64,000 nucleotides of DNA from a virus. Under the pieces are notes generated by a model. That model had not been told where the DNA came from and did not search any database. It worked only from the letters and a program-made list of their open reading frames with translations. Shown piece by piece: positions 28,471 to 46,921 of the stretch. The stretch spans positions 24,898 through 88,897 of IMG/VR virus record IMGVR_UViG_3300020177_001482; one strand, given 5' to 3'. The first letter of the stretch is position 1. Every line of letters starts with the position of its first letter. Made by a program: the position numbers and the translations under genes.

Positions 28471-29542
28471 AGTACTCCTTGATGGAATCGCAAACGTATA
28501 AAACCTCGTTCTTCTTAAGGAAAGGATGTATGGGCAACGAGATCACGTCCTGACAGAACTTTTCTGCATTTGGCATTTCCTGTCCTGTGTAAAACATCTT
28601 CATCCTTGCCATGGATTGTGGATAATGTATTTGCGTCTGTATACCTTTGCCATCCAGGAACGCTTTGAGTCCGTCCCTGTCCTGTGCCCGAATAACAAGT
28701 TTGTGATTATTTGAAACAGTGTACAGACTCGATTCTATAGAACTGATTCCTGCGTCGTCTAATTTCCTAGTGTACCACTGCCTAACCTTTTTTGATCTAG
28801 ACAACAATGACTTATACTTGGAAAGTAAAAAATTCAAAATGTTGGCATGGTCGTTGCTCAGGCATGAGTTGTATCCGTATTCTAACTTGCCCGTGCCTTT
28901 GCCGTGATATCGTAGGCTACGGATAAACTTCGCTTCGTCAATGTCATCTGTAAGTACCATCCCCCCGTTGCCAAAACAAGGCAATGGTTTGCTTGGGGCA
29001 AAACTGAGACTGCTTATGTCACCTAATTTGCCACTTGGTATTTTTTTGTAAAAACTTCCGAGGCTCTGTGCGGCATCCTCTATGAGAGGTATTTTGTGTT
29101 TGTCACAGTACTGTCTTAGCCTATCATAATCTGCAAGATTGCCAAATAGGTTCACGTACACTAATGCATCGGGTAAGATTGTGGCAGGTAGATTTGCGAT
29201 CAATCCTTTCCTGTCAACATCAACGAAAGTTATTGTCGCTCCGGTCCTTTTAATCGCTTCCGCTGTGGCTAGATAACTGACCGCTGGACACAGCACATTT
29301 GATCCTGGTCCTATTCCTTTGGCCATTAAAGAAAAATAAAGTGCGTCGGTGCCACTACCTACCGCTACTCCATAGTTTCTCTTTGTGAATTTTGCTACAG
29401 ACTTTTCAAATTTGTCTAGCCAAGATCCTGCTGTATGGCTACTACTAACAACATCGCCTGATCTCCAAACTTCTTTTGCCCTACGTGTGATTCTCCAACT
29501 GTAGGCATCATAGATCCTATCCACTCCACCAAACTTAATCAT
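28460..29542 (-). CDS. DegT/DnrJ/EryC1 PLP-dependent sugar aminotransferase
   Basis: GSGTDAL, IEDAAQSLG, SFAPSKPLPCFGNGG, SLPIHP. Confidence 0.92.
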   Translation of the reverse strand: MIKFGGVDRIYDAYSWRITRRAKEVWRSGDVVSSSHTAGSWLDKFEKSVAKFTKRNYGVAVGSGTDALYFSLMAKGIGPGSNVLCPAVSYLATAEAIKRTGATITFVDVDRKGLIANLPATILPDALVYVNLFGNLADYDRLRQYCDKHKIPLIEDAAQSLGSFYKKIPSGKLGDISSLSFAPSKPLPCFGNGGMVLTDDIDEAKFIRSLRYHGKGTGKLEYGYNSCLSNDHANILNFLLSKYKSLLSRSKKVRQWYTRKLDDAGISSIESSLYTVSNNHKLVIRAQDRDGLKAFLDGKGIQTQIHYPQSMARMKMFYTGQEMPNAEKFCQDVISLPIHPFLKKNEVLYVCDSIKEYYGV

Positions 29543-29691
29543 CAGAATTCTTTCTTAACACCAACATGTGGATTCTCCACGCAACTGTTGGTTATTTCTT
29601 TTATTGTCTCTTTGTTTAAATCTACGTCACAACTGGCACTGGGTTTGATCCCACAACCCACACACAACAATAGTATTATTAGATATTTCAT
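29542..29691 (-). CDS. Unlisted 49-aa putative lipoprotein (MKYLIILLLCVGCGIKPSASCDVDLNKETIKEITNSCVENPHVGVKKEF)
   Basis: Basic N-terminus, hydrophobic h-region, lipobox-like CVG|C; coupled to both neighbours. Confidence 0.65.
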   Translation of the reverse strand: MKYLIILLLCVGCGIKPSASCDVDLNKETIKEITNSCVENPHVGVKKEF

Positions 29692-31160
29692 CCCAGTACT
29701 CTCACTCCGTATTTGTTGGTAAACGCTCTACCATCCGCCCTGTCATTCACAATTGGTTGTCCCTTTATATTCAAACTGGTGTTCAAAAGTATGGGGCAAC
29801 CCGTCTGTTTTTTCCATTCCGTCAACAACGCATGGAACCCTGGATTATCCGTCTTACGCACCGTTTGAACCCTACTTGTGTGATCATGATGTATTATGGC
29901 AGGGAAGTCTTTACCATGCGTACACGCCGCTGTAAATTGCATATAAGGGGTGTTTTGAACTGCTTTAGGTAGCTCAAAATACTCGTTTACATCCTCCTCT
30001 AATATGGCCGGAGCGAACGGTCTGAACTTCTGTCTTTTCTTGATGCTGTTTACCAGATCCTTGATGTCCTCACCCCTGGGATCGGCCAACAGCGATCTAT
30101 TACCAAGTGCCCTAGGACCAAACTCCGCCCTGCCGCTGGCCACTCCCACCATCTTGTTTTCCTTCAATTCTTTAATCAGGCTGTCCACCGGATACTCGCC
30201 ATCTATCTCGTGTCCCAGGAATGGGTGTTGCCAATCAAGATGCTTTTTCTCATGTGCGGCTATACAGCCTAGGCTTGATCCTGCGTCACCTGGGTTTGGA
30301 ACAATCCATATGTTGTCAAACAATCCCATGTTGGCCAACACCCTGTTGGCGGCACAGTTCAATGCTACACCGCCTGCATACACAAGATTACGTGATCCAT
30401 ACTTGCTGGCCCTGTGCCATAATTCTGCAAGGCATTCTTCTGTGACTGCCTGTATGCTGGCGGCTATGTCCATCACATCTGCATTTGGCTCCCAGTCGCT
30501 CAATCCCCTGTGTAGATTCTTTTTCAGTTTGAAAGGTGTCTGATACACGAAATCATCATAGATCTTTTGTTTGTATTTTGGTGTTCCGTACGCGGCCATG
30601 CCCATCAGGATGTATTCCTCTTCCGCTGGCTTGAGTCCACATCGATGTGTGAAAGCACTGTACAGTATTCCTATGCTGTGCGGATAGTTTAGTGTTTCTT
30701 TTCTTTCAACCAAGGTCTTGTCTGCCGTTGATATCGATACAGTCTCCCATTCTCCTATTGCATCCACTGTCAGTATTGTTGCTCCTGTGTCCTTGAAAGG
30801 TGACGTGAAGTATCCTGCCGCGGCGTGTGAGTCGTGGTGTTTCACGTACTCATCTATCTTGATTCCAAAGTGATCCAAGTGCCATTGTGGCATCTCGGTG
30901 TAACTCATGGCCAATCCGTACTGTCCCGCGTAGAACTGTCTGGTCTTCTTCAACAGTGGTAGTTCGTAATACACTACCTTATCAAATGGCCCAAAAGTTT
31001 TGGCCTCGTCCACTATCTTTTGGTTAAGGTAGTGATCGTTCTTGACCTTACTATAACGTTCCGCATGTGCGGCCCACAATATCTCACCCGTGCCAGAACT
31101 GTAATCCACCACAGCCATGGCGGCATCGTGATTCATGCAGTTGATTCCTAATATCTTCAT
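29688..31160 (-). CDS. O-carbamoyltransferase (NodU/CmcH/TobZ family)
   Basis: HDAAMA, ERYSKVK, HHDSHA, GGVALNC, PGDAG, EFGPRALGNRS, FRPFAP, LLNTSLN. Confidence 0.95.
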   Translation of the reverse strand: MKILGINCMNHDAAMAVVDYSSGTGEILWAAHAERYSKVKNDHYLNQKIVDEAKTFGPFDKVVYYELPLLKKTRQFYAGQYGLAMSYTEMPQWHLDHFGIKIDEYVKHHDSHAAAGYFTSPFKDTGATILTVDAIGEWETVSISTADKTLVERKETLNYPHSIGILYSAFTHRCGLKPAEEEYILMGMAAYGTPKYKQKIYDDFVYQTPFKLKKNLHRGLSDWEPNADVMDIAASIQAVTEECLAELWHRASKYGSRNLVYAGGVALNCAANRVLANMGLFDNIWIVPNPGDAGSSLGCIAAHEKKHLDWQHPFLGHEIDGEYPVDSLIKELKENKMVGVASGRAEFGPRALGNRSLLADPRGEDIKDLVNSIKKRQKFRPFAPAILEEDVNEYFELPKAVQNTPYMQFTAACTHGKDFPAIIHHDHTSRVQTVRKTDNPGFHALLTEWKKQTGCPILLNTSLNIKGQPIVNDRADGRAFTNKYGVRVLG

Positions 31161-31492
31161 CTACCTATTTCCCATCCTAACACCACACCATAGTTCTCTT
31201 CGCCGTTGTGCTTTTCATATGCTGGAGAGATGAAAAGTCCTCCTGCCTTGTATCTGATCATTGGCAGTACGTCCTCTAATTCATATCCCGTCACCAACCC
31301 TATTTCTAGAGTCCAGTATTCATCCAGCTCAAATTCTCTGCCAACGTATGTGCTGATCCTGTCCTCGGAGTTGTAATACACACCTGCTATATTGTCGTCC
31401 ACTGTGCACCTTGCGTGTGGATGAATGTTGTTGTAATCCGCTTCCAGACCAACATGCATTGACAGTGCCAAGAACAATCCTAAACAGTTCAT
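31157..31492 (-). CDS. Small putative outer-membrane beta-barrel protein (PagP-like pattern)
   Basis: YYNS..S.Y.G, GLVTGY, alternating strands ending YGVVLGWEI. Confidence 0.45.
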   Translation of the reverse strand: MNCLGLFLALSMHVGLEADYNNIHPHARCTVDDNIAGVYYNSEDRISTYVGREFELDEYWTLEIGLVTGYELEDVLPMIRYKAGGLFISPAYEKHNGEENYGVVLGWEIGR

Positions 31493-32046
31493 TTGATGTT
31501 GAACCATCCTTTCGCCCTGTCCCTGAACTTCTCCCATTCATTCAACTCTACGTCATACTCGAAATTCTGTGTTGTGAGGTTGACCTGCACTTCCTTGGCT
31601 CCGTTCTTGAGATGGAACTTACGTGCCATGTCCGTGAGAGGACTCAACGTGATCAACCTGTTGAGATGGTTTGATTGTTTGATCATCTTGTACACTTCAT
31701 TGACCATGTGCTTTCCGCCACCTTTCTTCTTGGCCCACACCGTGTAGGCTATCGCTATAGAACCCTGTTGTCCTGCCCTGTGTATCGCCTGCATGGCGGC
31801 GTCTTTACTCATTGTGTCCATCTCCTCCACGCTCTTAGGTATGCCATGTGTGAATGCGAAACACATTACAGCCGCTATGTCTCCCTCCTCGTCCTTGATT
31901 CCGTATATCTTCCTGCCGTATGCCTGTCTGAACTCCAGACTAAGTTCAGGTCGCACAGGATCTTCCGTGACATCTATGTACGGCAGTTCGATCAGTTCGA
32001 ACCGGGGCGTCTTTTCCAACGCTTTCTTAATTTTTTTGAGCACCAT
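31489..32046 (-). CDS. GNAT-like fold protein
   Basis: AYTVWAKKKGGGK acyl-CoA-type loop, TLSP, ARKFHLKNGA. Confidence 0.5.
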   Translation of the reverse strand: MVLKKIKKALEKTPRFELIELPYIDVTEDPVRPELSLEFRQAYGRKIYGIKDEEGDIAAVMCFAFTHGIPKSVEEMDTMSKDAAMQAIHRAGQQGSIAIAYTVWAKKKGGGKHMVNEVYKMIKQSNHLNRLITLSPLTDMARKFHLKNGAKEVQVNLTTQNFEYDVELNEWEKFRDRAKGWFNIK

Positions 32047-32047
32047 C

Positions 32048-32152
32048 CTATTTGTATATGAATGGATCTTTCTTCTTTAACTCTTTGAGTCTCTTCCTGT
32101 ATTTGATCTCTTGCCGGATCTTGTTGATCAGATTCTTTATCCAAGTGAACAT
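32048..32152 (-). CDS. Unlisted 34-aa basic peptide (MFTWIKNLINKIRQEIKYRKRLKELKKKDPFIYK)
   Basis: TAATG-coupled to the upstream gene and exactly fills the gap; PFIY C-terminus. Confidence 0.7.
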   Translation of the reverse strand: MFTWIKNLINKIRQEIKYRKRLKELKKKDPFIYK

Positions 32153-32946
32153 TATCTGTCTCCTATCAGTTTGTTAAAAGTTGGTAACATTAATTTTACA
32201 GCATCTTGGTGTGCCTCGTCAAGTGGATGTGTGGTGCCACGTGGATAGTCATTCAAAAGTGCCCATTGATTGAAACCCATCATCCTCTCTCCAAAACTAT
32301 ACCATTTGGTAAAATCAATCTCACCATGCAATGCCTTCATTAAAGGATCCTGGTCTTTGTGTTGTTTCAATTCGTCATAAAACAAGGTATTGTCTGCCAG
32401 TGTGAACATGTATGGTATTTGTTTCTTCTCCAGAATATTCTGCAACCAGATTATGCTCTTCCAACTGAGGTAGGTCTCATGGTACGGGTTGGCCGCATAT
32501 TTGTATATGGCCTCGGCAAAAGGTTTTACCCCAGATTCTAGCATGTTGTTTTGTCTGGTTTTCCATTGCTCCTGCTGTGTCTCTGATCCCTGTATAGTCC
32601 TGAATGCTTCCTCGTTTCCCCTTGTCGTGTCCCATGGTGAGATACTTGTCCACCTTGTGTCCTCTAACATTCCATTCATGGGCATGGCCCAATCATAACG
32701 TGAGAGAAAACTCCACATGACCAGCACACAATCAACGTCTCTGTTCTGTGACACCGCCTTGAATGTCCTACGAGCTATAGCACTGTTGCCTGCTCCACCA
32801 GACGCAGTGCATATGTAGTCATCGTGTGTTGCTTCTGTGAGCCTGTAGGCCCATGCCTTCTTGGATGGTGTCTTGCCGCCCACATCATCCGAGAGTTCAT
32901 TCCCTAGCGTGAAACTGCAACCTCCTATAATTACTTTCTTACTCAT
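32152..32946 (-). CDS. SGNH-hydrolase-like protein
   Basis: GGCSFT, GAGN, MWS...R, THP..AH. Confidence 0.65.
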   Translation of the reverse strand: MSKKVIIGGCSFTLGNELSDDVGGKTPSKKAWAYRLTEATHDDYICTASGGAGNSAIARRTFKAVSQNRDVDCVLVMWSFLSRYDWAMPMNGMLEDTRWTSISPWDTTRGNEEAFRTIQGSETQQEQWKTRQNNMLESGVKPFAEAIYKYAANPYHETYLSWKSIIWLQNILEKKQIPYMFTLADNTLFYDELKQHKDQDPLMKALHGEIDFTKWYSFGERMMGFNQWALLNDYPRGTTHPLDEAHQDAVKLMLPTFNKLIGDR

Positions 32947-34120
32947 ATATCCTCAGTATGTTATTTAAAAGTGGAAACATGTCTCCAAAATTTTCCTTCC
33001 GGTACTTGTCTGTCTGTAATATCCTCGCTTTACGTTGTTCTCTGATCTCTGGTGTGTCCCTATCAGCGGCGTTCATGAAACGTATGCTGGGCTGATAATC
33101 AGTCAGCATGTGATACCTGTCTGTAACTATGTCCTTGACCTGTCGTGGCAGTGTTTGAATATTAAACACATCTGGATCAAAGCAAGTGTTTACGTAAAAA
33201 AAATTGGGTTGAAACTGTGCCACCCATAACGCTATCTTGGCCCAGTTAAACACATTGAATATTGATACTGTTGAACATATCTGGAAGTCCATGTTAGGTG
33301 TTTTCATTTCTTTGAACTTGACAAGATTTCCATTTACCTCCCTCCAATTGGCAGGATGCCTCTGGTATTCGAAAGGTTCTCCAACGTCATCGATGCTGAA
33401 CGCTACTTCTACGTGTTTAAAATAACTCCAAAGATCGAAAATATCTTGCGGTGGCAACTGTGTACCGTTAGTGTTATAATGAATGTCAATGTTCCTTGCA
33501 TATCCCTTTTCAACACAATGCATCAGGATCTTAAAGTGATCCTTAATCATGAACGGTTCTCCGCCCGTGAATTCGAAGTACTCAACATGCTTGAGATCAT
33601 CCTGCAACTCCTCGAAGAACTGTGGATTGCGTTTTGGCCATCCACCTTCCTTGAGTTGCATCCTTGCTAGTGGGTTATCTCCACCCTTGGCCGTCTCATA
33701 ATCTATTTCCTCCTGTGCCCACTTGCTGGAACTCCAGGAACCGCATATCCTACACTTTAAATTACACACGTTGCCTAACTTAAAATCAATAAATTTCAGC
33801 GTTGGCTCGTTATTAGGTGTCCAGTCTGTAAGACTAGTCTTCATCTTGTACAGTGAATTTTGTCTTTTACTTGTCTTTCCTGCATTTTCTTCTTGCCAAC
33901 AACTTTGACACCCTTTAGGACGTTCACCGTTACGGAACTGCTCACGTAAATTTTCCATATATGCATTGTCTTGAATTGACTTAAGACTCTGTTCGAACAC
34001 TTTGACATCAGGTACACTTCCTTTGTATAGACAGCATGGAGATGCTCCACCGTTAACATCAACCTCAAGATGTGTCCAAGGTAGCGGACACACATTTGAT
34101 TTTATATACTTGTCCACCAT
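32939..34120 (-). CDS. Radical SAM protein with N-terminal twitch/SPASM domain (#5)
   Basis: CPLPW..PCC..CQSCW, CNLKCRIC, TGGEP, YNTNGT, SIDD. Confidence 0.92.
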   Translation of the reverse strand: MVDKYIKSNVCPLPWTHLEVDVNGGASPCCLYKGSVPDVKVFEQSLKSIQDNAYMENLREQFRNGERPKGCQSCWQEENAGKTSKRQNSLYKMKTSLTDWTPNNEPTLKFIDFKLGNVCNLKCRICGSWSSSKWAQEEIDYETAKGGDNPLARMQLKEGGWPKRNPQFFEELQDDLKHVEYFEFTGGEPFMIKDHFKILMHCVEKGYARNIDIHYNTNGTQLPPQDIFDLWSYFKHVEVAFSIDDVGEPFEYQRHPANWREVNGNLVKFKEMKTPNMDFQICSTVSIFNVFNWAKIALWVAQFQPNFFYVNTCFDPDVFNIQTLPRQVKDIVTDRYHMLTDYQPSIRFMNAADRDTPEIREQRKARILQTDKYRKENFGDMFPLLNNILRIYE

Positions 34121-35442
34121 TCGAATGCTCTCTTGTTATTTTGTAAGATTTTAGTTATGTCTGTTCCCCTTATCCTGTCTAACCTTTCGATTTCTGCTTT
34201 GCCTTTTTTTTGTCCTTCTATGTATTTCTCTTTATCGTACACATATTCGTTGTTTCTCTTCTGCTTTTGCATTTCGTCCAACTGTGAAAAAAAATTCCTT
34301 AAATTTTTATTTTTATACTTGATAGTTTTTTCTCTCACATCATCAATAATCTCAGACATTATGTCATATGGCATGAACAATGGTGCTATGGCATTATCAT
34401 GTGAGAAATTGAATACTTGTTTTGTCAATAATTCTATCCCTAGGTCGTTGCTTAGGTGAACCATGTTTTCAAGGTCAAAAAGTCCAGGCAGTGTTATAGT
34501 GAGGTCCAACTGCATACGTTTGTAATCGTGGTTATTGTCACAAAACTGTAGACCGTATTTGATGTTGTCCAACCATTCATTATACTTGAGACCTGTTCTA
34601 ATATATTCTCCAATCTCACCTGTGCCGTCTATAGATGCACATATCTGGAATTTTGGGAAATACTTTAGTAAGTCATCAAAAAGATTCTTGCCATAAAAAT
34701 TTATCCTACTCATGTTAGAATTGTATCTCGCTAACACCTTGTCTGCATATCCTAGTTCCTTAATTCTTTCCATTGCTGTCCAATGTATTTTCCACATCAG
34801 AGGTTCGCCTCCACACCAGTACAATTCAGTAATTCTTTTTTGTTCTACTGCTTCTACAAATTCTTTAACAATCTGTTGATCATGAAACTTTTGCAACTTC
34901 TCTTTGATATCTTTTCTACCCCATATCCTATAGTGTTCATAATCGCCTTTTCCGTGTTTTTTATTCTCGGTCTCCCATGTGCTTGATAACATGTCTCCAC
35001 ACATTCTACAACTGAAGTTGCAAAGGTTAGAGAACCTATAATCAAAACTTTCAACTTTCATCGTTGTTACACCTGTGGCGTCTGTGCTGTCAAATGCTTC
35101 GTTGATTTTGTTTTTATACAACCAATTGAAATGTTGTCTGTATACTTGTTCATTCAACAATTTGTAATTGCACACAGCACATTGAGGTATCTCCTCACCT
35201 GCTAACAGTTTAAGCCTTACACTTTTCATGTAGTCCGAGTTCCAATGTTGTTCCAAAGTCGTAAGATTCAATTTATCGTTATGACCTTTTGGATCAATAG
35301 TATCAATATACTGCTTGAAGTTTTCACTAGATTCACGTGAACTACAACACAACCTACGCTCCATTTGTGGCGACAAGTATGTGTGTGTCCATGGAGCCAT
35401 GCAAAAAGTCTTGTTTCCTTCGTTTGGTTTAATCCTTTTCAT
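34102..35442 (-). CDS. Radical SAM protein with N-terminal twitch/SPASM domain (#4)
   Basis: CMAPW..LCC..CAVC, CNFSCRMC, GGEP, SIDG..EYIRTG. Confidence 0.92.
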   Translation of the reverse strand: MKRIKPNEGNKTFCMAPWTHTYLSPQMERRLCCSSRESSENFKQYIDTIDPKGHNDKLNLTTLEQHWNSDYMKSVRLKLLAGEEIPQCAVCNYKLLNEQVYRQHFNWLYKNKINEAFDSTDATGVTTMKVESFDYRFSNLCNFSCRMCGDMLSSTWETENKKHGKGDYEHYRIWGRKDIKEKLQKFHDQQIVKEFVEAVEQKRITELYWCGGEPLMWKIHWTAMERIKELGYADKVLARYNSNMSRINFYGKNLFDDLLKYFPKFQICASIDGTGEIGEYIRTGLKYNEWLDNIKYGLQFCDNNHDYKRMQLDLTITLPGLFDLENMVHLSNDLGIELLTKQVFNFSHDNAIAPLFMPYDIMSEIIDDVREKTIKYKNKNLRNFFSQLDEMQKQKRNNEYVYDKEKYIEGQKKGKAEIERLDRIRGTDITKILQNNKRAFEWWTSI

Positions 35443-36712
35443 ATAACTCCGTGAGTTCTGGGAATACATCGAGAATATTTTCATCCCTGATCACATCCAA
35501 TTTATTCATTGCTTGTCTGAACTGTGGCAGGTCTTTACTGTTGTCCCTTCTCATCATGTAATCTATGCCTGATTCAAATCCTTTGGTTGCCCTAGTGAGA
35601 CTATCTAGAGGACGTAACCATTCAATATGTTTTTGATACTTTTCTTTCACCTTGTCTTTGAACGTTTCAGGCAACAGGTCAATTCTTTGTGCATAAGGAA
35701 ACTGTAACAAATTGAAGTTAAAATCCTGTGGTTTTAGCAATCCTTGATCTACCCAATTTCTATGGAAGTCAGGAATGTGTAGGGCATTTATAAGTCCAAC
35801 TGTAGAACTGATATAAAAGTCAACCTGTGGGCACACCTCTAACATCCTCTTTCTGTTAGCAACAATATCATTCCACACAGTTCCTTTACGCATGAACTCT
35901 CCACGTTTGCCTTCTGCATCTAGGCTGGCACCTATTGACACGGAATCAAACTTATTCCAAAGTTCAAGTACATCTATGTCCTTAAATTTTGTTTTAGTAA
36001 AATTCGTGTTGTAAATTAATCTTACGTGGTACATTTTACGCTTGTCTAATTCTTTCAATATCCTATAGTGCTCTTCCATTATTATTGGTTCACCACCAGC
36101 AAAATAAAATTGTTCTACATGCTCAAACTGATCTAACATCTGTTCCCATATGTCGTCACTGCTCCGTCCCACTTTCATTATCTTTGCATGGTTAGGAGGA
36201 GAACCTGTGAGTTTCTTGTGGTCTTCATACCAGTTACTACTGAACCATGTTCCGCAACTCCTACAGGCCAGGTTACATAGGTTACTAAATCTTATATCCC
36301 AATACTTGATAACAAAATCTGCTGTGCCGTCTGCCTGTGTGTTTTCAACCATTCCAATATTGTGTCCGAAGTGTTTGTTAGAGCTCAGTCGCAGGCTAAA
36401 AAATCCTGACTTCTCTTGGTCGTAACATTTAGAACAGTGTTTGCTGGCCTTGTTTGCCAGCATGTTCTTTCTGATGCCTTTCATCTCCTCGTTGTTGAAT
36501 ACTTCTGCCATGGAATTCTTGTTGAGATCACCTACTGGATATTTGTCCAATGCAAAACAACAAGGATACGCTCTACCGTCAGGGAAAGCATGTATGTGCA
36601 ACCATGGCATCATACAGAACGTGTCACTGTCTATCAACAACCCCTTTTCTTTGGACGTCATGTCTTTGATCTTTAGTTTCTCGGGCTCTTTGGCCCCATA
36701 ATCATAGGCCAC
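35429..36712 (-). CDS. Radical SAM protein with N-terminal twitch/SPASM domain (#3)
   Basis: CMMPW..PCC..CSKCY, CNLACRSC, AGGEP, YNTN, SLDA. Confidence 0.92.
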   Translation of the reverse strand: MAYDYGAKEPEKLKIKDMTSKEKGLLIDSDTFCMMPWLHIHAFPDGRAYPCCFALDKYPVGDLNKNSMAEVFNNEEMKGIRKNMLANKASKHCSKCYDQEKSGFFSLRLSSNKHFGHNIGMVENTQADGTADFVIKYWDIRFSNLCNLACRSCGTWFSSNWYEDHKKLTGSPPNHAKIMKVGRSSDDIWEQMLDQFEHVEQFYFAGGEPIIMEEHYRILKELDKRKMYHVRLIYNTNFTKTKFKDIDVLELWNKFDSVSIGASLDAEGKRGEFMRKGTVWNDIVANRKRMLEVCPQVDFYISSTVGLINALHIPDFHRNWVDQGLLKPQDFNFNLLQFPYAQRIDLLPETFKDKVKEKYQKHIEWLRPLDSLTRATKGFESGIDYMMRRDNSKDLPQFRQAMNKLDVIRDENILDVFPELTELYEKD

Positions 36713-38045
36713 GGTACCACTCTCCTATAATTGGGAAAGTCTTTTCAAAGTCCTTGCCTGATCGTTTGTCGTACTGACTGTAGAATTCCTTGAAGTCTTT
36801 CTGTAGTTTGCTCTGTTCGGCCGCATCCGCATGCGGTGTTTTCACAACATCAAGGTAGTCGATTAATCTCTGTGTTTGATCTATTTCCATGCTCTCCAAC
36901 CATCTGTTATTATTAGTTAAGAACTTTACCAAACCACCCTTAAATTTATTTCTAAGTTCATCTGGCAGTACAAGGGGTGACTGAAAACTAGGGAACCGCA
37001 ATATATTGAGTGTGAAATTGATTGTTGGTCCGTATACTTTGCTCGCACTCTTGAACCAAACCATCTTCTCTAAAAACTCAGGCAGTGTTTCTAAACACAA
37101 AGCATTTATGGTTGCCATGTTGTGTATTTCAGAAGGTACTTTGTCCACCATCATGTGTAAAAGGTTAGAATGCCATGTTCCAAAGTCCAATCCATCTCTG
37201 ATGTATTCTGCCTGTTGAAACGTTGCTTCGCAACTTGTGTACAAATGAAAGTTCTTGAACCCTTTCAGTTTCGTTTTGAATCTATCTATAATGCTTTGTT
37301 TCGCTCCTAGATTAGAGTTGATAGCAATACGCATGTCTGGGTTTATTTTGTCCCCCTGTGTTTCTATCCAATCCAACAACCTCCATAAGTTAGGAGACAT
37401 CATTGGCTCTCCACCCGTGATCCTTAATTCATCCAAACTCTTGTGCAGATCCGATTCCCACCACTTGTAGAATGCCTCGATGTATGGATTTGTCTCGTCC
37501 TTTTTATATGGTTCCGCTGAATCGTGTGCATGGGTGAAATGGTTACGTCCGTCTGACTTCAATCCTGTGTATGGCCCTTGTCTTTTGATGTTGTTTGCCC
37601 ACGTAGAACTGAATTGAGGATTACAATACGTACAGGCAAAATTACATGTCCTGTCAAATGCAATCTCAAGTGTTTTCAAATTAACATTATCCTTATAAGG
37701 TGATTCATATGCATTTTGTAGATCATCATTGGTGAATATCTTAGATTTATATACCCTGTCGCTTATGTTGTCTCTGCCAACATCTTCTATCTTCCAGCAG
37801 TACTCACATCCTGCAGGCCTCTCACCACACTGCATCTGTCTTCGTTGTTCTTTCTTTTGTCTTGTGTTGTGTATCGCACTTGGGTTTGTTTTTATCTCTT
37901 CGAGGTCAATCTTGTGTGGTAGTGGATGATGACAACTTGTGGTCATTCCACTGCCTAACCATATTGTAGCATTATACCACTTGGCTCCACAGAAACTTGC
38001 ACTCTTTGGATCTAGTATTTGTTTTTTATATTCAAGATCGTCCAT
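36702..38045 (-). CDS. Radical SAM protein with N-terminal twitch-like domain (#2)
   Basis: CGAKW..SCHHP..CEYCW, CNFACTYC, TGGEP, EYIRDG. Confidence 0.92.
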   Translation of the reverse strand: MDDLEYKKQILDPKSASFCGAKWYNATIWLGSGMTTSCHHPLPHKIDLEEIKTNPSAIHNTRQKKEQRRQMQCGERPAGCEYCWKIEDVGRDNISDRVYKSKIFTNDDLQNAYESPYKDNVNLKTLEIAFDRTCNFACTYCNPQFSSTWANNIKRQGPYTGLKSDGRNHFTHAHDSAEPYKKDETNPYIEAFYKWWESDLHKSLDELRITGGEPMMSPNLWRLLDWIETQGDKINPDMRIAINSNLGAKQSIIDRFKTKLKGFKNFHLYTSCEATFQQAEYIRDGLDFGTWHSNLLHMMVDKVPSEIHNMATINALCLETLPEFLEKMVWFKSASKVYGPTINFTLNILRFPSFQSPLVLPDELRNKFKGGLVKFLTNNNRWLESMEIDQTQRLIDYLDVVKTPHADAAEQSKLQKDFKEFYSQYDKRSGKDFEKTFPIIGEWYRGL

Positions 38046-38772
38046 CTTTTCCTTTGAAGTAGTCTTTTAACTTGTTGTATTCGTCTGTAGGACAAAGTAT
38101 TTCACTCCTAAACATAATGTCCTTGACCCAGTGGTAGTGTGCTATTGGCGGAGGGTGTGATTCGCCTGGCATGTAGTATTCTTTATAATTATCTTGCCCA
38201 AATTCCCACAATCCTTTTTTGTCTTCATAAAAAATAAACTTTGTCCAGTCTATGTGATTGTACAAAGTTTGTTCACTATTACTGTGGAAATTATGATTTA
38301 TGACATTCTTGTTGAACACCATCATTGTGTATGGTATTCTTTTCTTATCAAGGAATAGTTGTGTCCTTAAAATATGTTCAAGTGTTCTATAACTTTGATG
38401 CTGTTCATTCCAAAAATGTCGTCTAAAATAATCATGCTTGTCGGCAAGTCTATGTCCTCCGAACCAAGTGCTCCATTTGAAATCATCATCCCAGACACGA
38501 TAGGTTATACGTCCATCTAAATTATCGACGCCTTCGTCGAGAGTTATCACCTCATACCTGTCGGCTCCGGACCACATAATGTACATGTGTGCGATTTCCC
38601 TGTGTTTCATTGCACTGTTGATCACTGCCCTTGATATTGTTTCGTTCCCGCTGGCCGATCTGCCCTTGTTGAGCATGTGTGACCCACCGTCGAACCATGG
38701 GATAAATTTAGGCCAGCAATCCCATTTGAATCTTGTGAAACTGCAACCGTGTGCAACTGTAATATCAGGCAT
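38032..38772 (-). CDS. SGNH-hydrolase-like protein
   Basis: HGCSFT, ASGN, MWS..DR, SHP..AH. Confidence 0.65.
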   Translation of the reverse strand: MPDITVAHGCSFTRFKWDCWPKFIPWFDGGSHMLNKGRSASGNETISRAVINSAMKHREIAHMYIMWSGADRYEVITLDEGVDNLDGRITYRVWDDDFKWSTWFGGHRLADKHDYFRRHFWNEQHQSYRTLEHILRTQLFLDKKRIPYTMMVFNKNVINHNFHSNSEQTLYNHIDWTKFIFYEDKKGLWEFGQDNYKEYYMPGESHPPPIAHYHWVKDIMFRSEILCPTDEYNKLKDYFKGKDGRS

Positions 38773-40135
38773 TCATACACTCCTTCCAAAATTCTTCCAT
38801 TTCAGGGAACGTGTTCAAGAACCTAGTAGAACGCCTGCGATCGTGTTCGTTAAAAAAAGCGTAAAAGTTTTTTTTATTTTGCGTACTTTCGTCCGCGTTT
38901 TCGCGCCAGTATGCGAGATTCCTCTGCATCTTTTGTATCTCGAAGTCCTTGAATATGTGTAACCCGTTCGACTCGCCGGAATTTAACTGCATGTACTTTA
39001 TATTATCTTCATGTATTGCCTGATACGACTCTGGTAGCAGTGTGATCTGTTGCCATGCGGGTTGACGTAGCAGTGGCACATCGAACCACACCCTCTGGTA
39101 TGTCTTCGAGTACTTGGTACGTAGTTCCAATATCTTCTCCAGCAGTTTGTCCATGCTTGTTATACTGAGGTTGTTGTAAGTGCATATGAACGTTATTGAA
39201 TTTCGACCTGGTATCCTGTCCAAGAACTCCTCCACATTGTCCATCATGCGGTCAAATTCCAGACCGTCACGTATGTACTCAGCACGTTCGCCGAATGCGT
39301 CAACACTCACGAACTGCATCATGTGTTCCACCTTCTCCTGCATACATATTTCATGTGCCATGTTGAAGTACTTCTCCTTCAACTTCTTGTCCGGAGGACA
39401 CATATTGCTAGTGACGTTTAGATGCAGGTCTTTTTTAGGGTGGTCCATTATGTATTGGAACACTTTGTAAGTGTTCTTGTCCATCATGGGTTCTCCACCG
39501 GTCATACGGAAGTGCTTTAGATTCTTGTACAGTGTTGGCCACCATCTCCAGAAAGCGGTCACGTAGGGGTTGTCCTCCCTGTTGGGTATGGGCCTACGCC
39601 TGCCCTGGAAGTGTTCTGGTGCGTTGTGGGGAGGGGTGGTAGGATATTCGCCGTATCTGTCCACCTCCTTGGCCCACGTTGTCGAGAACTGTGGTGAACA
39701 ATAACTGCACTTGAAGTTACAAGCGTTGTTGAAGTTCACCTCAACATATCTCGGCGTCCAACGTTCGTCTATTGGATTCTTTCTGATGTCATCAAAGTCC
39801 TGCATTGCCCATGGCTCTCCGGACCTGTAGTGCCTGTCACTCATCTCCCCGGTCTTCTCAATGTTCCAGCAGTATGAACAACCGTCCGGTTGCTGTCCTT
39901 GGAGCATCTGTTGTCGCTGTTGCAGTTTTTCCTGTGTGTTGTGCAATGCCGCGGGATTTGAATTCAATTGGTCGGCGTCTATCTCGTGCAGTGGCGGATG
40001 GTAGCACGAGTTCGTAAGTCCCGTGGGTAGGTGCAGTGACGTCTGGTTCCACTTTGCCAGACACATGGTCGGGGAAACTTCTTGCAGTCTATCCTTGACT
40101 TTCAAGGCGTCTGCTTTGTAATCACTGGTACTCAC
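38765..40135 (-). CDS. Radical SAM protein with N-terminal twitch-like domain (#1)
   Basis: CLAKW..SCYHP..CSYCW, CNFKCSYC, TGGEP, SVDA..EYIRDG. Confidence 0.92.
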   Translation of the reverse strand: MSTSDYKADALKVKDRLQEVSPTMCLAKWNQTSLHLPTGLTNSCYHPPLHEIDADQLNSNPAALHNTQEKLQQRQQMLQGQQPDGCSYCWNIEKTGEMSDRHYRSGEPWAMQDFDDIRKNPIDERWTPRYVEVNFNNACNFKCSYCSPQFSTTWAKEVDRYGEYPTTPPHNAPEHFQGRRRPIPNREDNPYVTAFWRWWPTLYKNLKHFRMTGGEPMMDKNTYKVFQYIMDHPKKDLHLNVTSNMCPPDKKLKEKYFNMAHEICMQEKVEHMMQFVSVDAFGERAEYIRDGLEFDRMMDNVEEFLDRIPGRNSITFICTYNNLSITSMDKLLEKILELRTKYSKTYQRVWFDVPLLRQPAWQQITLLPESYQAIHEDNIKYMQLNSGESNGLHIFKDFEIQKMQRNLAYWRENADESTQNKKNFYAFFNEHDRRRSTRFLNTFPEMEEFWKECMNA

Positions 40136-41021
40136 GATCTTGCACTCCCTTGTTAATGTGTTGTGGCATTATAAATCTGTAGAACTTGCTGTCATCCTCG
40201 CAATACTCTGCTATAGGTATGTCCAGTTGTTGTCTTAGGCTGTTACCAAACAAATGTAACTGGTCATCTATGTTTTCTATATCCACTTGATTGAAATAAT
40301 TTTGCATCTCATCAAGATCCCTTATCTTGAAAAATTCATTATTGGGTTCAAGCACAGTGTAGAAACAACCCATCCTCGCACCCAGCATAGCATATTTGCC
40401 ATTGTCTATGTCCGCCCCTATTGTACACCAAGTGCTTAACATTTTTAAATTTTGTCTCCAAATGGACTTAGAATAGTTTTTGGCTGTAATAGGTTTTCCC
40501 TTGTCAGTACTCATCTTGACACCTTCCCTGTAGCCTGCCACAAACGCCTGTTGTGGTGTTGCATTTATGACTGTCGTGGAATAGCAGTTGTGCAGATTCT
40601 CGTGTGGCACTCCCCAGCAGAAATCTATCTGGTTTTCTTCGGTGTCAGCGTTTTCGTGTGTTCGCATGTTTAGGCAAGTGTCTTTAGACCAACCAACCAA
40701 TCCTCCATTGCCGTACACCAACCCATTTATGTTGTTCCTTGCTCTCCACCTGTGTACTGCTTTCTTGTTTGTCTTGTTCCAATCCAGTGTCTCCAAAAGG
40801 AATCTTTCATCTATGATGTTGTCACCGTCGACGCTTATGAAGAAATCGGTCTCCGCCACGTCTGCCGCGGCCTTGTGTGCGTTGTCAAAACCCACCACGC
40901 CGTCAACACGCTTGACCCAGGGCACCTTGTTCTTGAGGTCCGCCCAGTTCTGTTCTTTGTTGGGCTCCTTGTAACTGATGTACACGAAATCGAGGTCGCT
41001 TATTCTCGTTCTATCTGCCAT
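40122..41021 (-). CDS. GT-A fold glycosyltransferase
   Basis: ISYKEP, AHKAAA, FISVDGDN (DxD), YGNGG. Confidence 0.7.
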   Translation of the reverse strand: MADRTRISDLDFVYISYKEPNKEQNWADLKNKVPWVKRVDGVVGFDNAHKAAADVAETDFFISVDGDNIIDERFLLETLDWNKTNKKAVHRWRARNNINGLVYGNGGLVGWSKDTCLNMRTHENADTEENQIDFCWGVPHENLHNCYSTTVINATPQQAFVAGYREGVKMSTDKGKPITAKNYSKSIWRQNLKMLSTWCTIGADIDNGKYAMLGARMGCFYTVLEPNNEFFKIRDLDEMQNYFNQVDIENIDDQLHLFGNSLRQQLDIPIAEYCEDDSKFYRFIMPQHINKGVQDREYQ

Positions 41022-41302
41022 GTGACTCCCCCTTCCCCTATGTTGTTAGGCCAGTGTATGTCGCCGTCCTGGAAGAAATAACCTTTGCTTGACTTTTTCA
41101 ATGTCCTATACTGTGTCTTTGGATTTAGCGTGGGTTTGACCACAATCTCACCATCCCGCAACATGAGGTTCTGCTCGCCGTACTGTCGTGCCCACAATTT
41201 CTTGGCATGGGTAACCTCATGCTGTTGGCCTTCGACTGTCACAAAAAACTTCTTTGGTGCACGTTTTGGCATTTTTTTCAGTGCATCAAATAATCCTGGC
41301 AT
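41000..41302 (-). CDS. Hypothetical protein
   Basis: ORF between the GT genes. Confidence 0.6.
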   Translation of the reverse strand: MPGLFDALKKMPKRAPKKFFVTVEGQQHEVTHAKKLWARQYGEQNLMLRDGEIVVKPTLNPKTQYRTLKKSSKGYFFQDGDIHWPNNIGEGGVTWQIERE

Positions 41303-42080
41303 GTAACTCCTTGTCATGATAGTGCCACAGCCTGCTGACACGTGTCTCTCCGATGTACACGGAATCTCCCGTGCGGTTTGGGTACAGGTATTCGTTCTGA
41401 TCCTTGGTTCTCATGGTGCCGTTTACCCCAGGCTTGTGGTGTATGAATTTGAACCAATCATAATCAATCAACTCTTTAGCAGTGGGATCCATAATTCTGT
41501 GTGCCAAGGCAAAAACAACGTCTGTGCTGGGATATCTGTCATGGCAAGAGATCAACATTTCAGTTTTGACCTTTTCCCAATTCTTGACTATATGTTCTGC
41601 TATCTCATAGAACCTCTGTGCTTTCGCACTCTTACGGAAGTACATCAGACCATTGTAGATGTTGGGCAAGTGATTCCTTGTGAACAATTTCCTATATGGT
41701 GTCTGTTTCACCACATTGCCTCTATAGTCAAAACAGTTGACACTGAACACTAAATCGTGTTGCCACAAGTGATACCACCACCAATCCGTGTTGATCGTCC
41801 ATAACATGTCTGCTTCTAATTTTATCGTATGGGTAAAAGGTGTGATACGAAACGCCTTGTACTCGTTGGCCCACTTGATTTCATGCGAAGCACTGTCGTC
41901 TTGTCTCATCATTTTTACGACATCCACGTGTTGATTTTCGAATTTGCTTTTCTCGTCCGTGACCACACATATCTGATTGTCTCTGTTCCAACGCTTGATG
42001 CTCTTGGCCAAGGTTATAGACAGTTCAACGTAGTCAGTCTTGTCGTTGTTCTGTGCGAACCAAAGGAATCCCCTAGACAT
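41286..42080 (-). CDS. GT-A-like glycosyltransferase (GT8-like, EAD instead of DxD)
   Basis: LAKSIK, TPFTHTIKLEADML, YNGLMYF, TDVVFALA; paralogue of the next gene. Confidence 0.6.
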   Translation of the reverse strand: MSRGFLWFAQNNDKTDYVELSITLAKSIKRWNRDNQICVVTDEKSKFENQHVDVVKMMRQDDSASHEIKWANEYKAFRITPFTHTIKLEADMLWTINTDWWWYHLWQHDLVFSVNCFDYRGNVVKQTPYRKLFTRNHLPNIYNGLMYFRKSAKAQRFYEIAEHIVKNWEKVKTEMLISCHDRYPSTDVVFALAHRIMDPTAKELIDYDWFKFIHHKPGVNGTMRTKDQNEYLYPNRTGDSVYIGETRVSRLWHYHDKELHARII

Positions 42081-42825
42081 TGGCTATCTCCTTGTTTAAT
42101 ACATGCACATCTTGGTCTTTGACAAATGAAATCTGATCTTTGTACCGCCAGGCCAGGCCGTTGTCGGTCATTTCGATGATTTCACAATCACGTGGCAGTG
42201 TTGGCAGTGCGAATGGCATCTTCTCATATCCCATGAATCCGTTGACCTGTTGCAGTGCCATCGCAAACAGGTAATCATTACGCAGGTTCCTAGCGTATAT
42301 CCTGTACATCTCCCTGAAGTAACTGTAGTTCTCCTTGATGTATTTCACGGTGTCAAATATCTTCCTGACCTTTTCGTTCTTCTTGAACAGTAGCAAAGTG
42401 GCCCACACCATGGGTATCATACTCCACCTTCTCTGATCAAAACTGTCTCTGCCTGTCAAGTCGTGTGCCGTGCCTGGTACCAGGAAATCATATTCAGTGT
42501 CAAACAAGTTTTTCAAATTATCAGAGAAACAGAAGTAGTCAATGTCCATGACCAATGTTGTGTCGTATGGGGACAATTCATAGGACATGTGCCTGTCCAC
42601 ATTGTTCCAGGGTTCACCATTCAATTTGTTGCCCAATTCTGGCTCTATGAACTTGTACTCTATGAAACCTAGGGGACTCATCCTGCTGAAGGTTTCAAAG
42701 TTGGTGACCACCGTTATGTTTTTCGAGATGTTTTTCTTGACCAATCGGACACAACGTTCCAGGATCTTGTGATACCTTGTGTGTTCCGTGTCAAAACAGA
42801 ATAGCAATACTCCTTGCGTCATCAT
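42073..42825 (-). CDS. GT-A glycosyltransferase (GT8-like)
   Basis: YELSPYDTTLVMDIDY (DxD), WATLLLF, RNDYLFAMA, HVLNK. Confidence 0.65.
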   Translation of the reverse strand: MMTQGVLLFCFDTEHTRYHKILERCVRLVKKNISKNITVVTNFETFSRMSPLGFIEYKFIEPELGNKLNGEPWNNVDRHMSYELSPYDTTLVMDIDYFCFSDNLKNLFDTEYDFLVPGTAHDLTGRDSFDQRRWSMIPMVWATLLLFKKNEKVRKIFDTVKYIKENYSYFREMYRIYARNLRNDYLFAMALQQVNGFMGYEKMPFALPTLPRDCEIIEMTDNGLAWRYKDQISFVKDQDVHVLNKEIANV

Positions 42826-43139
42826 TCACCTTTTCTTGTAAAAGTTTCGTACATCTGGTGATATGCGTTCAAGGCCTCCTGGTTCCGTTCAATCAGTGTT
42901 TTCAAAAAATCATCAGCGTCCTTGATCTCTACTGGATTGTTGTTTGTGTCCAGTATGAAAAATTTACCGTTATTTTCCTTCAGTGTCCTAACTATGCATA
43001 TGGTCTGGGCGTCCGCACGGAACAGATTGCCGTTGTACGCCAACACCTGTCGTGCGTGTGCCTTCTCCAGAGCGTTGCGTTTGGCGACCGCTATATCATA
43101 AGATAGGTCTGATTGTTTTTTGAGTTCGCGAATATCCAT
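42822..43139 (-). CDS. Hypothetical phage protein
   Basis: YNGNLF...ILDTNNNPVEI; ATG 43139 sits 6 nt after a TATAAT. Confidence 0.7.
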   Translation of the reverse strand: MDIRELKKQSDLSYDIAVAKRNALEKAHARQVLAYNGNLFRADAQTICIVRTLKENNGKFFILDTNNNPVEIKDADDFLKTLIERNQEALNAYHQMYETFTRKGE

Positions 43140-43145
43140 ACCACA

Positions 43146-43183
43146 ATTATACAATAATTATGGTGGTATAGCAACCTGGTAAA
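43146..43183 (-). promoter_or_regulatory. Sigma70-type promoter with TTTACCAGG box, heading the GT/radical-SAM run
   Basis: Minus strand TTTACCAGG-TTGCTA-17 nt-TATAAT-6 nt-ATG. Confidence 0.7.
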
Positions 43184-46736: not shown

Positions 46737-46921
46737 TATGAGTCATCCCTAATTGTTGTCAATATACTTACATCGCCTAACATATCAATCAATGTGTTAT
46801 TCAAAATATCTCTCGCCGGATGATTCTTTATTGAATCTTCCAATGTTTTAATTTCTGTTGCTGTCAAAACATTGTCTATGTTAGCATTTATGTAATCAGC
46901 ACACTCTTGTTTTGTTATCAT
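46736..46921 (-). CDS. Small hypothetical protein
   Basis: Coupled ORF among tail genes. Confidence 0.6.
   Translation of the reverse strand: MITKQECADYINANIDNVLTATEIKTLEDSIKNHPARDILNNTLIDMLGDVSILTTIRDDS

Follow-up and report, generated by a model that had tools for sequence, protein, structure and literature searches.

The DNA described here (the window) is a stretch of 64,000 nucleotides (nt) from a virus, positions 24,898 to 88,897 of the IMG/VR record IMGVR_UViG_3300020177_001482, which has 88,897 bases in total and a CheckV completeness estimate of 25. An array of seven open reading frames (ORFs), all on the minus strand, occupies positions 32152-40135 of the window (~8 kb). Five of them encode radical S-adenosylmethionine (SAM) enzymes (rSAM1 to rSAM5), and the other two encode proteins labeled SGNH-like (SGNH_A and SGNH_B). 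In the direction of transcription, from rSAM1 to SGNH_B, the genes are as follows, with the lengths of the products in amino acids (aa).

38765-40135, minus strand: rSAM1, 456 aa, N-terminal-twitch radical SAM enzyme of clade I (CxAKW...SCxHP...CxYCW)
38032-38772, minus strand: SGNH_A, 246 aa, accessory protein of SGNH/DUF6071-like type that occupies a variable cassette slot
36702-38045, minus strand: rSAM2, 447 aa, N-terminal-twitch radical SAM enzyme of clade I
35429-36712, minus strand: rSAM3, 427 aa, N-terminal-twitch radical SAM enzyme of clade II, the most canonical of the five
34102-35484, minus strand: rSAM4, 460 aa as listed, with the true start possibly downstream, N-terminal-twitch radical SAM enzyme of clade II
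32939-34120, minus strand: rSAM5, 393 aa, N-terminal-twitch radical SAM enzyme of clade II
32152-32946, minus strand: SGNH_B, 264 aa, SGNH/DUF6071-like protein at the conserved end of the array

Adjacent ORFs of the array overlap by 8-56 nt, and the upstream ORF at 40122-41021 overlaps the start of rSAM1. Because of these overlaps the array ORFs are translationally coupled as listed. The array is the conserved core of a coupled operon (~27145-43154), together with two converging genes (25543-27179), and the operon is placed directly behind the tail-fiber genes of an uncultured jumbo myovirus.

All five enzymes pass the curated cut-off (170 bits) of the NCBIfam model NF033640 (N_Twi_rSAM, twitch domain-containing radical SAM protein), with scores of 328.3 bits for rSAM1, 297.5 for rSAM2, 420.1 for rSAM3, 306.1 for rSAM4 and 359.7 for rSAM5. 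The model has 398 positions and is covered end to end in every case, from position 1-2 to position 395-398. When all 88,897 bases of the record are searched with the same model, these five enzymes are found, together with one weak match to the radical SAM core. The weak match is to a 299-aa ORF on the plus strand at 15107-16006 (E 9.7e-6, model positions 132-219), for which no Pfam family is found at E<=0.001.

The sequences of the other four enzymes are 19-33% identical to that of rSAM1 in the five-enzyme alignment. The invariant columns of this alignment include C25, C44, C86 and C89 in the N-terminal region, C139, C143 and C146 of the CxxxCxxC motif, and G213-G214-E215-P216 of the GGEP motif. 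As the four N-terminal cysteines precede the CxxxCxxC motif, the auxiliary domain is located on the N-terminal side of the radical SAM core. A first-pass annotation of the window had described five coupled ORFs with CxxxCxxC, GGEP and an N-terminal Cys-rich domain, and the ORF boundaries, the invariant columns and the NF033640 scores of 297-420 bits bear this description out.

The Pfam SPASM model (PF13186, cut-off 21.5 bits) recognizes the N-terminal domain in rSAM3 (residues 33-97, 44.6 bits, E 1.8e-11) and rSAM5 (residues 11-75, 30 bits). The match in rSAM4 is below the threshold (15.3 bits), and none is found in rSAM1 or rSAM2. A SPASM domain has seven to eight conserved cysteines for two clusters, while a twitch domain has about four for one cluster. 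With just four invariant cysteines, the N-terminal domain of the array enzymes is therefore assigned as a twitch rather than a full SPASM domain, the number of clusters being that predicted from the sequence. The Pfam Radical_SAM model (PF04055) matches all five enzymes with E values between 2e-9 and 6e-4, and its gathering score is passed by rSAM5 alone (38.3 bits).

Matches to other families are weaker. NCBIfam models for sactipeptide, SCIFF and anSME enzymes give E values of 1e-5 to 1e-8, far below their cut-offs in score, and no RRE/PqqD family is found among the Pfam and NCBIfam matches of the five enzymes at E<=0.1. Sequence and profile searches of the PDB with the five-enzyme alignment find nothing significant beyond generic radical SAM cores. 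The non-significant profile matches include the twitch region of BtrN against the N-terminal domain (E 0.064), BlsE against the core (E 0.033) and tetraether lipid synthase (E 0.068). The enzymes therefore map to a curated and functionally unnamed family and not to characterized families of single function.

A FastTree phylogeny was calculated for 122 family members, including 101 of 150 representatives (those with 380-520 aa, with 49 longer or shorter ones omitted). It splits rSAM1 and rSAM2 (a side of 79 rows) from rSAM3, rSAM4 and rSAM5 (43 rows) with an SH-like support of 100; support in this tree is SH-like, with no bootstrap, and long branches are flagged for Vibrio phage K566 and one bacterial row. 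The two subtypes that the first-pass annotation had drawn from motifs, rSAM1/2 and rSAM3/4/5, are thus recovered as clades I and II. The clade II side holds all 11 bacterial sequences in the tree as well as four from K566, and clade I is grouped with none of the 11. A recent duplication of the five paralogs within the lineage was also considered. It was rejected, as no two of them are nearest neighbors in the tree and each lies beside other representatives. We conclude that the five genes belong to NF033640, are intact and diverged long ago. In this family the twitch domain precedes the barrel instead of following it.

The array is highly conserved among related viruses. A scan of IMG/VR with rSAM3 identifies 58 distinct loci with 73-90% identity, some of them near-duplicates. 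By tblastn with ORF checks, 48 of these loci carry all five enzymes, each intact and in an unchanged order, and the other 10 are truncated by contig ends. Intact orthologs are found in 55 loci for rSAM1 and 55 for rSAM2 (3 cut by a contig end in each case), 56 for rSAM3, 52 for rSAM4 and 51 for rSAM5, the remaining 6 and 7 of the last two being cut by or lying beyond contig ends. No partial or interrupted copy of an enzyme is seen in the 58 loci. The CxxxCxxC and GGEP motifs are kept in all of the full-length orthologs checked (269/269), and each enzyme is represented by 40-44 distinct protein sequences.

The array is under purifying selection, with a median ratio of nonsynonymous to synonymous substitution rates (dN/dS) of 0.025-0.14 in the usable ortholog pairs. 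Most pairs had saturated synonymous sites and were left out, so that 1-20 pairs per gene remain from 13-44 distinct orthologs, with a single pair each for rSAM3 and rSAM4. Decay or poor conservation of the array, which the first-pass annotation had named as grounds for doubt, is therefore not seen: the loci are complete or cut by contig ends, and dN/dS is at most 0.14 in the measurable pairs. A chance pattern is excluded, since there are five tandem matches above the cut-off and they are kept in all 48 complete related loci. The enzymes also occur as divergent alleles in mosaic combinations, with identities of 49-97% for rSAM2, 49-86% for rSAM4 and 41-92% for rSAM5.

The two GCSFT...HP proteins, which had been placed between the first two enzymes and at the end of the array, are indeed located there, and they are true paralogs (22-26% identity). 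Seven residues are invariant across 28 SGNH-like sequences, G9, S11, T13, N54, H240, P241 and H246. The first motif reads G-C-S-F-T, and GDSFT replaces GCSFT in one ortholog of SGNH_B. SGNH_A matches Pfam DUF6071 with E 0.0011 and 19.1 bits, below the cut-off of 27, and this is the sole curated support for the pair, as SGNH_B has no Pfam or NCBIfam match. The Atlas clusters of language-model look-alikes of SGNH_B contain DUF6071 in 33-39% of their members, or GDSL, with scores of 0.96-0.97. An SGNH/GDSL hydrolase would be expected to have a block I G-D-S with the nucleophilic Ser, Gly and Asn oxyanion blocks and a block V D-x-x-H, as well as a match to a curated SGNH model. The motifs and the look-alikes give partial support to the label SGNH-like of the first-pass annotation; curated models and the PDB do not add to them.

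The two proteins differ in their distribution. SGNH_B is present in 51 of the 58 loci, and SGNH_A is full-length in 15. The site between rSAM1 and rSAM2 (38032-38772 in the window) is a cassette slot. Among the 55 loci with both of these genes, the slot is empty in 25 and contains SGNH_A in 14, a different protein of ~200 aa in 13, a gap without an ORF in 1 and larger inserts in 2. The ~200-aa protein starts with ...FFGDSFC..., a canonical GDS block. One of the inserts (locus L007) encodes a 343-aa radical SAM protein with a twitch-like Cys pattern at its C terminus and a 211-aa ORF with an HxD-type motif. In another locus (L049:7966-10011), an SGNH_A-like part and the rSAM2 ortholog form one open frame of 681 aa, a natural fusion or the result of a lost stop codon.

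The remainder of the operon and the two genes that converge on it are listed below.

42822-43154, minus strand: conserved small protein of 110 aa at the head of the coupled block, 39 distinct orthologs
41286-42080 and 42073-42825, minus strand: two paralogous proteins of 264 and 250 aa, GT8/GT-A-like by motif only
40122-41021, minus strand: partner protein of 299 aa, start-coupled to rSAM1, GT-A/GT2-like by motif only
31157-31537, minus strand: PagP-like ORF of 126 aa (phrog_3600, E 1.1e-7)
29688-31160, minus strand: carbamoyltransferase of the NodU/CmcH type (Pfam Carbam_trans_C, E 9.7e-55; Carbam_trans_N, E 1.8e-43)
28460-29542, minus strand: sugar aminotransferase of the DegT/DnrJ/EryC1 type (Pfam PF01041, E 1.4e-73)
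27145-28470, minus strand: protein of 441 aa, the C-terminal half of which is a paralog of 40122-41021
26178-27179, plus strand: SDR epimerase/dehydratase for nucleoside diphosphate (NDP) sugars (Pfam Epimerase, E 4.6e-38), converging on the operon
25543-26181, plus strand: de-N-acetylase of the PIG-L type (Pfam PIG-L, E 2.6e-13), converging on the operon

The products of 40122-41021, 41286-42080 and 42073-42825 are putative glycosyltransferases (GTs), an assignment that is not proven. The 40122-41021 protein carries a GT2-like ...FFISVDGDN... motif. Its Atlas look-alikes are found in a viral cluster that is automatically named GT2-like and in a bacterial cluster with GT2 in 21% of its members (score 0.87). 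The 441-aa protein has no Pfam match and is 24-25% identical to it over ~210 residues (tblastn), with the DxD position not kept. The two upstream paralogs are clearly related to each other (hhalign probability 98.2%, E 4e-14) and belong to phrog_1903, with DUF5672 at E 0.035. The 40122-like gene is present in 55 of the 58 loci and the two upstream paralogs in 55 and 53, and the PagP-like ORF has a tblastn match in 9. Pfam searches at E values up to 10 give only noise for the unnamed proteins of the cluster. None of the 21 proteins of the cluster has a transmembrane-like segment, and no flippase, polymerase or lipid-carrier transferase is found among them. All of the cluster proteins being soluble, with no flippase, fits with an acceptor in the cytoplasm.

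The virion genes lie upstream of this block. PHROG matches to tail-fiber and virion proteins are found at 45108-51625, where the fiber-like genes are paralogous to each other; they are located downstream of an ORF for a 3845-aa protein (52360-63897, minus strand) and are followed by the cluster. The tetrapeptide DGST occurs 15 times in the giant protein, whereas 500 shuffles average 0.26 copies and never exceed 2. As several copies are in GDGSTxTF repeats, DGST may be a feature of a domain instead of a sequon for modification. The late-promoter-like hexamer TAAATA is found 14 times in the window, compared with 29.5 expected, always on the coding strand. Minus-strand copies are located directly before the starts of fiber-region genes, at 44115, 45109, 47154, 50126 and 52357, and the hexamer is absent from the minus strand between 44115 and ~32962-32967. 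This spacing hints, weakly, that the array is transcribed together with the late genes. The sequence TATAAATA is absent from the window.

The family-B (T4-type) DNA polymerase encoded at 81-2639 shows 43-51% identity to the enzymes from Sinorhizobium phage Phosso, Agrobacterium phage Atu_ph07, Cronobacter phage GAP32 and further phages of ~350-490 kb, and a genome of roughly 350 kb agrees with these relatives. Together with the tail-fiber and virion genes on the contig, the polymerase marks a tailed phage (Caudoviricetes) of the jumbo group with T4-like replication. The placement of the lineage rests on the polymerase, since tblastn with a 999-aa part of the giant protein gives no match and that with 47157-48698 gives only a partial match, to Puniceispirillum phage HMO-2011. 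When 50,697 phage records are compared with the 8-kb array by megablast, no match is found. With polymerase and fiber genes on the record and identities of 19-33% among the enzymes, the earlier description of five divergent, intact paralogs within one operon of a phage stands.

The exact sequence of the array region recurs in many salt-marsh metagenomes. In a metagenome protein search with rSAM3, the best 120 rows all have 80-89% identity, with Tara among the sources, and at least 6,443 relatives are found at E<=0.001 among 8,000 scored candidates. The region is also present in contigs of four salt-marsh metatranscriptome runs, and one DNase-treated library has pieces inside SGNH_B, inside rSAM5 and across the rSAM5/rSAM4 boundary. 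Three array contigs of 14-18 kb (L066, L067 and L068) are binned into metagenome-assembled genomes (MAGs) labeled Verrucomicrobia, Betaproteobacteria and Rickettsiales, and one Flavobacteriales MAG has a match with 37% identity. The array contigs in these unrelated MAGs are probably mis-binned phage DNA and give no host signal.

The family extends well beyond this lineage. A profile of the five paralogs matches 20,872 representatives (clusters at 50% identity) at E<=0.001 and 5,874 at E<=1e-30. Members above the NF033640 cut-off are found in 2 of 300 Bacteroidota, 2 of 400 Pseudomonadota and 1 of 300 Verrucomicrobiota genomes and in none of 14 controls, counts that omit three query-derived MAGs. 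Tandem sets are present in four of these five genomes, and in a sixth (G285) that scores just under the cut-off. The Verrucomicrobiota genome (G877) has a single member. The sequence of rSAM3 is 36-39% identical to those of members from Bacteroidota genomes or MAGs.

Sugar genes are linked to the family both by fusion and by neighborhood. One protein (P0154) consists of a radical SAM enzyme that is 47% identical to rSAM2 and a C-terminal GT2 domain. In another (P0163), a homolog of the 40122-41021 protein (the N-terminal 228 residues, 28% identity, E 6e-19) is fused to a clade I radical SAM enzyme. A third fusion is found in Pseudomonadota (G404:C19; L100:8579-11143), where one frame of 854 aa combines ABC_tran, the Wzt_C carbohydrate-binding domain and an N-twitch radical SAM enzyme. 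It is followed by three more family members, with Wzm, rmlC, rmlD, a TylF-type O-methyltransferase, another methyltransferase and the glycosyltransferase WbsX nearby. The contig also carries accA and dnaE in its flanks, as expected for a chromosomal locus, and this is an O-antigen locus of the ABC-transporter type. In Bacteroidota, one genome (G153) has four members beside a GDSL protein, a methyltransferase-GT2 fusion and a GT-C-like protein. In G285, two members are located beside GDSL homologs and ~2 kb from a carbamoyltransferase that is 32% identical to the product of 29688-31160.

Among cultured phages, a clade I enzyme together with a 40122-like partner is found only in Ralstonia phage RsoM2USA (MG752970.1, ORF346-358). 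The order of genes there is a fiber-like gene, a 110-aa protein, two 41286/42073-like proteins, a 40122-like protein, the radical SAM enzyme and a second 40122-like protein, with an NDP-sugar epimerase nearby. The radical SAM enzyme (RsoM2USA_349) is 35% identical to rSAM1 and 35-37% identical to rSAM1/2. Its gene is flanked by RsoM2USA_350 and RsoM2USA_348, which are 45% and 34% identical to the 40122-41021 protein. RsoM2USA_352 and RsoM2USA_353 are the syntenic homologs of the 41286/42073 pair, and RsoM2USA_354 is 29% identical to the 110-aa protein. The module genes are annotated as hypothetical, and Pfam recognizes the epimerase alone. According to the published report, the module comes after the gene for the tail sheath and after virion proteins that were confirmed by mass spectrometry (PMC8504454). 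Synteny across related large phages, which the first-pass annotation had suggested as a check, is therefore found at two levels, with the order fixed in 48 of the 58 loci and the core module in RsoM2USA.

A different arrangement is seen in Vibrio phage K566, which has four family members in ~7 kb. A protein encoded between two of its radical SAM genes matches the GT8 domain of the O-antigen enzyme WbbM (E 0.0038), and PDB searches with the neighboring proteins 307, 309 and 310 gave nothing. A PagP-annotated gene (L065:18733-19182) is located ~3 kb from this array.

Our preferred reading, with a probability of about 0.6, is that the operon builds and edits a sugar structure. The first-pass annotation had left the substrate as a glycan or a protein. 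The glycan part of this proposal is now favored and the protein part less so, because of the family fusions (with GT2, with a 40122-like protein and with Wzt) and the bacterial neighbors. Characterized radical SAM enzymes with a comparable architecture provide the chemical precedents. BtrN is a dehydrogenase, NeoN and HygY are epimerases, AprD4 is a dehydratase and BlsE is a decarboxylase. Like the array enzymes, they combine one auxiliary Cys domain of the [4Fe-4S] type with a radical SAM barrel, and the BtrN-type enzymes likewise have DegT-type aminotransferases, PIG-L deacetylases and glycosyltransferases as co-workers on amino sugars. There are also clear differences. The auxiliary domain is C-terminal in the BtrN/NeoN-type enzymes but N-terminal (permuted) in the array, with no significant sequence similarity. 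Moreover, the characterized enzymes act singly on small molecules, whereas the array has five genes.

By analogy with these enzymes, we infer the following chemistry, activities, timing and target. The epimerase, the PIG-L deacetylase, the DegT aminotransferase and the carbamoyltransferase would make and decorate amino sugars, the GT-like proteins (40122-41021 and 41286-42825) would attach sugars, and the SGNH-like proteins may add or remove acyl groups. At the cluster bound by CxxxCxxC, each radical SAM enzyme would cleave SAM, and the resulting 5'-deoxyadenosyl radical would abstract one specific hydrogen from a sugar C-H bond. A fully Cys-ligated N-terminal cluster would relay an electron, and the four invariant cysteines of the twitch domain fit with such a closed relay cluster. 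The outcome may be oxidation to a keto-sugar, epimerization, deoxygenation or decarboxylation, as in BtrN, NeoN/HygY, AprD4 and BlsE, and keto-sugars could then be transaminated by the DegT enzyme and carbamoylated. The five paralogs would correspond to five different sites or sugars. That they act stepwise, as an assembly line on a substrate made by the phage, is a proposal of the first-pass annotation. The glycan would be made late and in the cytoplasm.

The C-terminal domain of Wzt binds the finished end of a chain. The Wzt fusion, the fusions with GT2 and 40122-like proteins, and the mosaic alleles together with the cassette slot fit with action on a growing or finished glycan and not only on free nucleotide sugars. 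Within the sugar reading, a glycan on the fiber or baseplate proteins of the phage itself is the sub-case that we prefer, though only tentatively. This target is favored because all of the proteins are soluble and the position behind the fiber genes is fixed, both here and in RsoM2USA. That the lineage uses a fixed set of five radical enzymes for C-H editing (by epimerization, oxidation or deoxygenation) of sugars already attached to its own tail-fiber or baseplate proteins is a possible but doubtful extension of it. In that case the virion would bear a glycan of unusual sugars, and the swappable alleles and accessory cassettes would act like serotype variation.

The same sugar chemistry could instead be directed at the lipopolysaccharide (LPS), capsule or another surface glycan of the host during infection, with superinfection being blocked or progeny being kept from binding debris. 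The family is tied to bacterial envelope polysaccharides by the Wzt fusion and the O-antigen locus (G404), a PagP-like ORF is present in the operon and a PagP-annotated gene near the K566 array, and modification of the O-chain by phage GT8 enzymes is argued in a study of pelagimyophages (PMC7029224). We nonetheless consider a host target rather unlikely. With neither a membrane protein nor a flippase, polymerase or ligase in the cluster, the phage would rely totally on host machinery, and the PagP-like ORF is matched in just 9 of the 58 loci. The array is also co-oriented and coupled with the fiber genes with no intervening TAAATA, which fits, weakly, with late co-expression. As there is no Wzm/Wzt and no membrane protein in the window cluster, the phage operon is not an export pathway. 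Direct modification of amino acid side chains, in the manner of peptides that are made by the ribosome and then modified (RiPPs), would make cross-links, epimerizations or oxidations in the fiber proteins or the 3845-aa protein. SPASM/twitch enzymes are mostly peptide maturases, and this habit of the family, the weak matches to sactipeptide, SCIFF and anSME models, the fusions with S8 peptidase, Sel1 and TPR, the adjoining structural genes and the enrichment of DGST in the giant protein all point in this direction. However, RiPP radical SAM/SPASM maturases are expected to come with a leader-recognition domain and a precursor gene. No RRE/PqqD-type domain is found in the five enzymes at the threshold given above, and the overlapping genes leave no room for a precursor-peptide ORF inside the array. 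In addition, the recurring partners are all sugar enzymes, and the three fusions with GT2, 40122-like and Wzt partners are independent of each other. Protein modification is accordingly judged unlikely.

The product could also be a soluble small molecule directed against the host or rival phages, resembling an aminoglycoside, an aminocyclitol or a nucleoside sugar and tailored in the BtrN, NeoN or AprD4 manner. The DegT, PIG-L, carbamoyltransferase, twitch radical SAM and GT-like proteins do parallel aminoglycoside pathways, some Bacteroidota contexts contain PhyH dioxygenases, a WelO5-like halogenase and methyltransferases, and all of the proteins are soluble. Yet no 2-deoxy-scyllo-inosose synthase, cyclase, exporter or self-resistance gene is recognized among the annotated ORFs, the position behind the fiber genes is fixed in the 58 loci and RsoM2USA, and the Wzt fusion links the family to the export of polymers, and we regard such a product as very unlikely. 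A lipid or DNA substrate, through cross-linking or hydroxylation of lipid A or acyl chains or through hypermodification of DNA, appears most improbable. It would draw on the PagP-like ORF, the SGNH "lipase"-like proteins, the PhyH neighbors in bacteria and the weak match to tetraether lipid synthase, matches that are all weak or generic. The array is located ~16 kb from the nucleotide genes and is grouped with the fiber genes, the cluster proteins show no domain for lipid synthesis or DNA binding, and the bacterial homologs are in polysaccharide and not DNA-modification loci.

Several observations weigh against the sugar reading itself. Its chemistry is argued by analogy, no member of the family having a reaction on record. 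The 40122-41021 protein has no Pfam or PDB match, and its hhalign comparison with the GT2 domain of P0154 covers 40 columns at the DxD motif with a probability of 2.6%; an alignment of 40122-like proteins has no significant hhalign match to two GT2-containing proteins. The 41286/42073 pair passes no curated GT model and has no PDB match, and alignments of the 41286 and 42073 types have no significant hhalign match to K566_304. The label SGNH-like is partly supported, by motifs, a sub-threshold Pfam match and language-model look-alikes, and a profile search of the PDB with the SGNH-like alignment found nothing. The PagP-like ORF at 31157-31537 hints at the host envelope, and the fusions with S8 peptidase, Sel1 and TPR point to proteins and not sugars. 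In one Bacteroidota cluster (G081:C2:1208000-1227999; L089), two family members are located beside five PhyH dioxygenases, a WelO5-like halogenase and a methyltransferase, and this cluster looks more like one for small-molecule or lipid tailoring. For expression, scans for sigma-70 promoters (49, with 42.4 expected) and terminators (17, with 15.2 expected) are at the level of chance, and contigs from RNA libraries prove neither transcription nor its strand, level or timing, just as the uncovered parts in run X18 do not equal silence.

Comparison with known systems places the array as follows. The genes are new members of a named but unstudied family, with which they share the N-terminal four-Cys domain, CxxxCxxC and GGEP. 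The NF033640 model carries no reaction or pathway name, and the phage window contributes five copies that are deeply diverged and fixed in their order. The literature searched does not describe a radical SAM family with an N-terminal twitch or SPASM domain. The first-pass annotation had known of no characterized pathway like the array, and none was found in the literature and PDB searches. Uniqueness, on the other hand, does not hold. The family is catalogued, with 5,874 clusters, tandem arrays occur in K566 and in bacteria, and "radical SAM cassettes" in the tail-fiber region of pelagimyophages are mentioned, without analysis in the available part of the paper (PMC7029224). What is undescribed is the variant of twitch-type sugar tailoring represented by a fixed set of five radical enzymes in a probable glycan operon of a phage.

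The host-recognition cluster (HRC) of pelagimyophages and cyanomyophages is similar in being a variable island in the tail-fiber region of T4-like marine phages that is rich in GT genes and genes for LPS-type sugars, and its GTs are proposed to remodel the surface glycan of the host (PMC7029224). It differs in that radical SAM genes are an occasional cassette there, as far as the available text goes, but a conserved core here, and the polymerase of the array phage is closest to those of jumbo phages of the Rak2/Atu_ph07 type. RsoM2USA shares the syntenic module behind tail genes and the clade I radical SAM enzyme, but it has one radical SAM gene in the module compared with five in the array. 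In its 19-kb stretch, tblastn finds no SGNH-like, DegT or carbamoyltransferase homolog. The Wzm/Wzt O-antigen loci share a family member, fused to Wzt and accompanied by rmlCD, methyltransferases and WbsX (G404), whereas the window is without Wzm/Wzt or any membrane protein.

The NF033640 family is very large, with thousands of relatives of rSAM3 alone in ocean metagenomes, and no reaction, structure or substrate was found for it in the literature and PDB searches. If the sugar reading is correct, it would explain rare surface-glycan sugars in phages and some bacteria without NAD-dependent chemistry and would bring new radical reactions to glycobiology. Giant phages would then devote ~8 kb of conserved genome to the editing of a glycan with a probable effect on host recognition or on the stability of the particle. 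If the edited glycan is on the virion, the N-terminal-twitch family would gain its first function, and this would be the first radical editing of a glycan at the polymer level, shared with the bacterial Wzt-linked O-antigen pathways. Tractable entry points are the cultured phage RsoM2USA, with its one-enzyme module, and, in bacteria, the O-antigen loci that encode Wzt fused to a radical SAM enzyme.

Elsewhere in the window, a MoxR-type AAA ATPase is encoded on the plus strand at 21133-22248 and is followed at 22248-23486 by a DUF2201 metallopeptidase-like/VWA protein.

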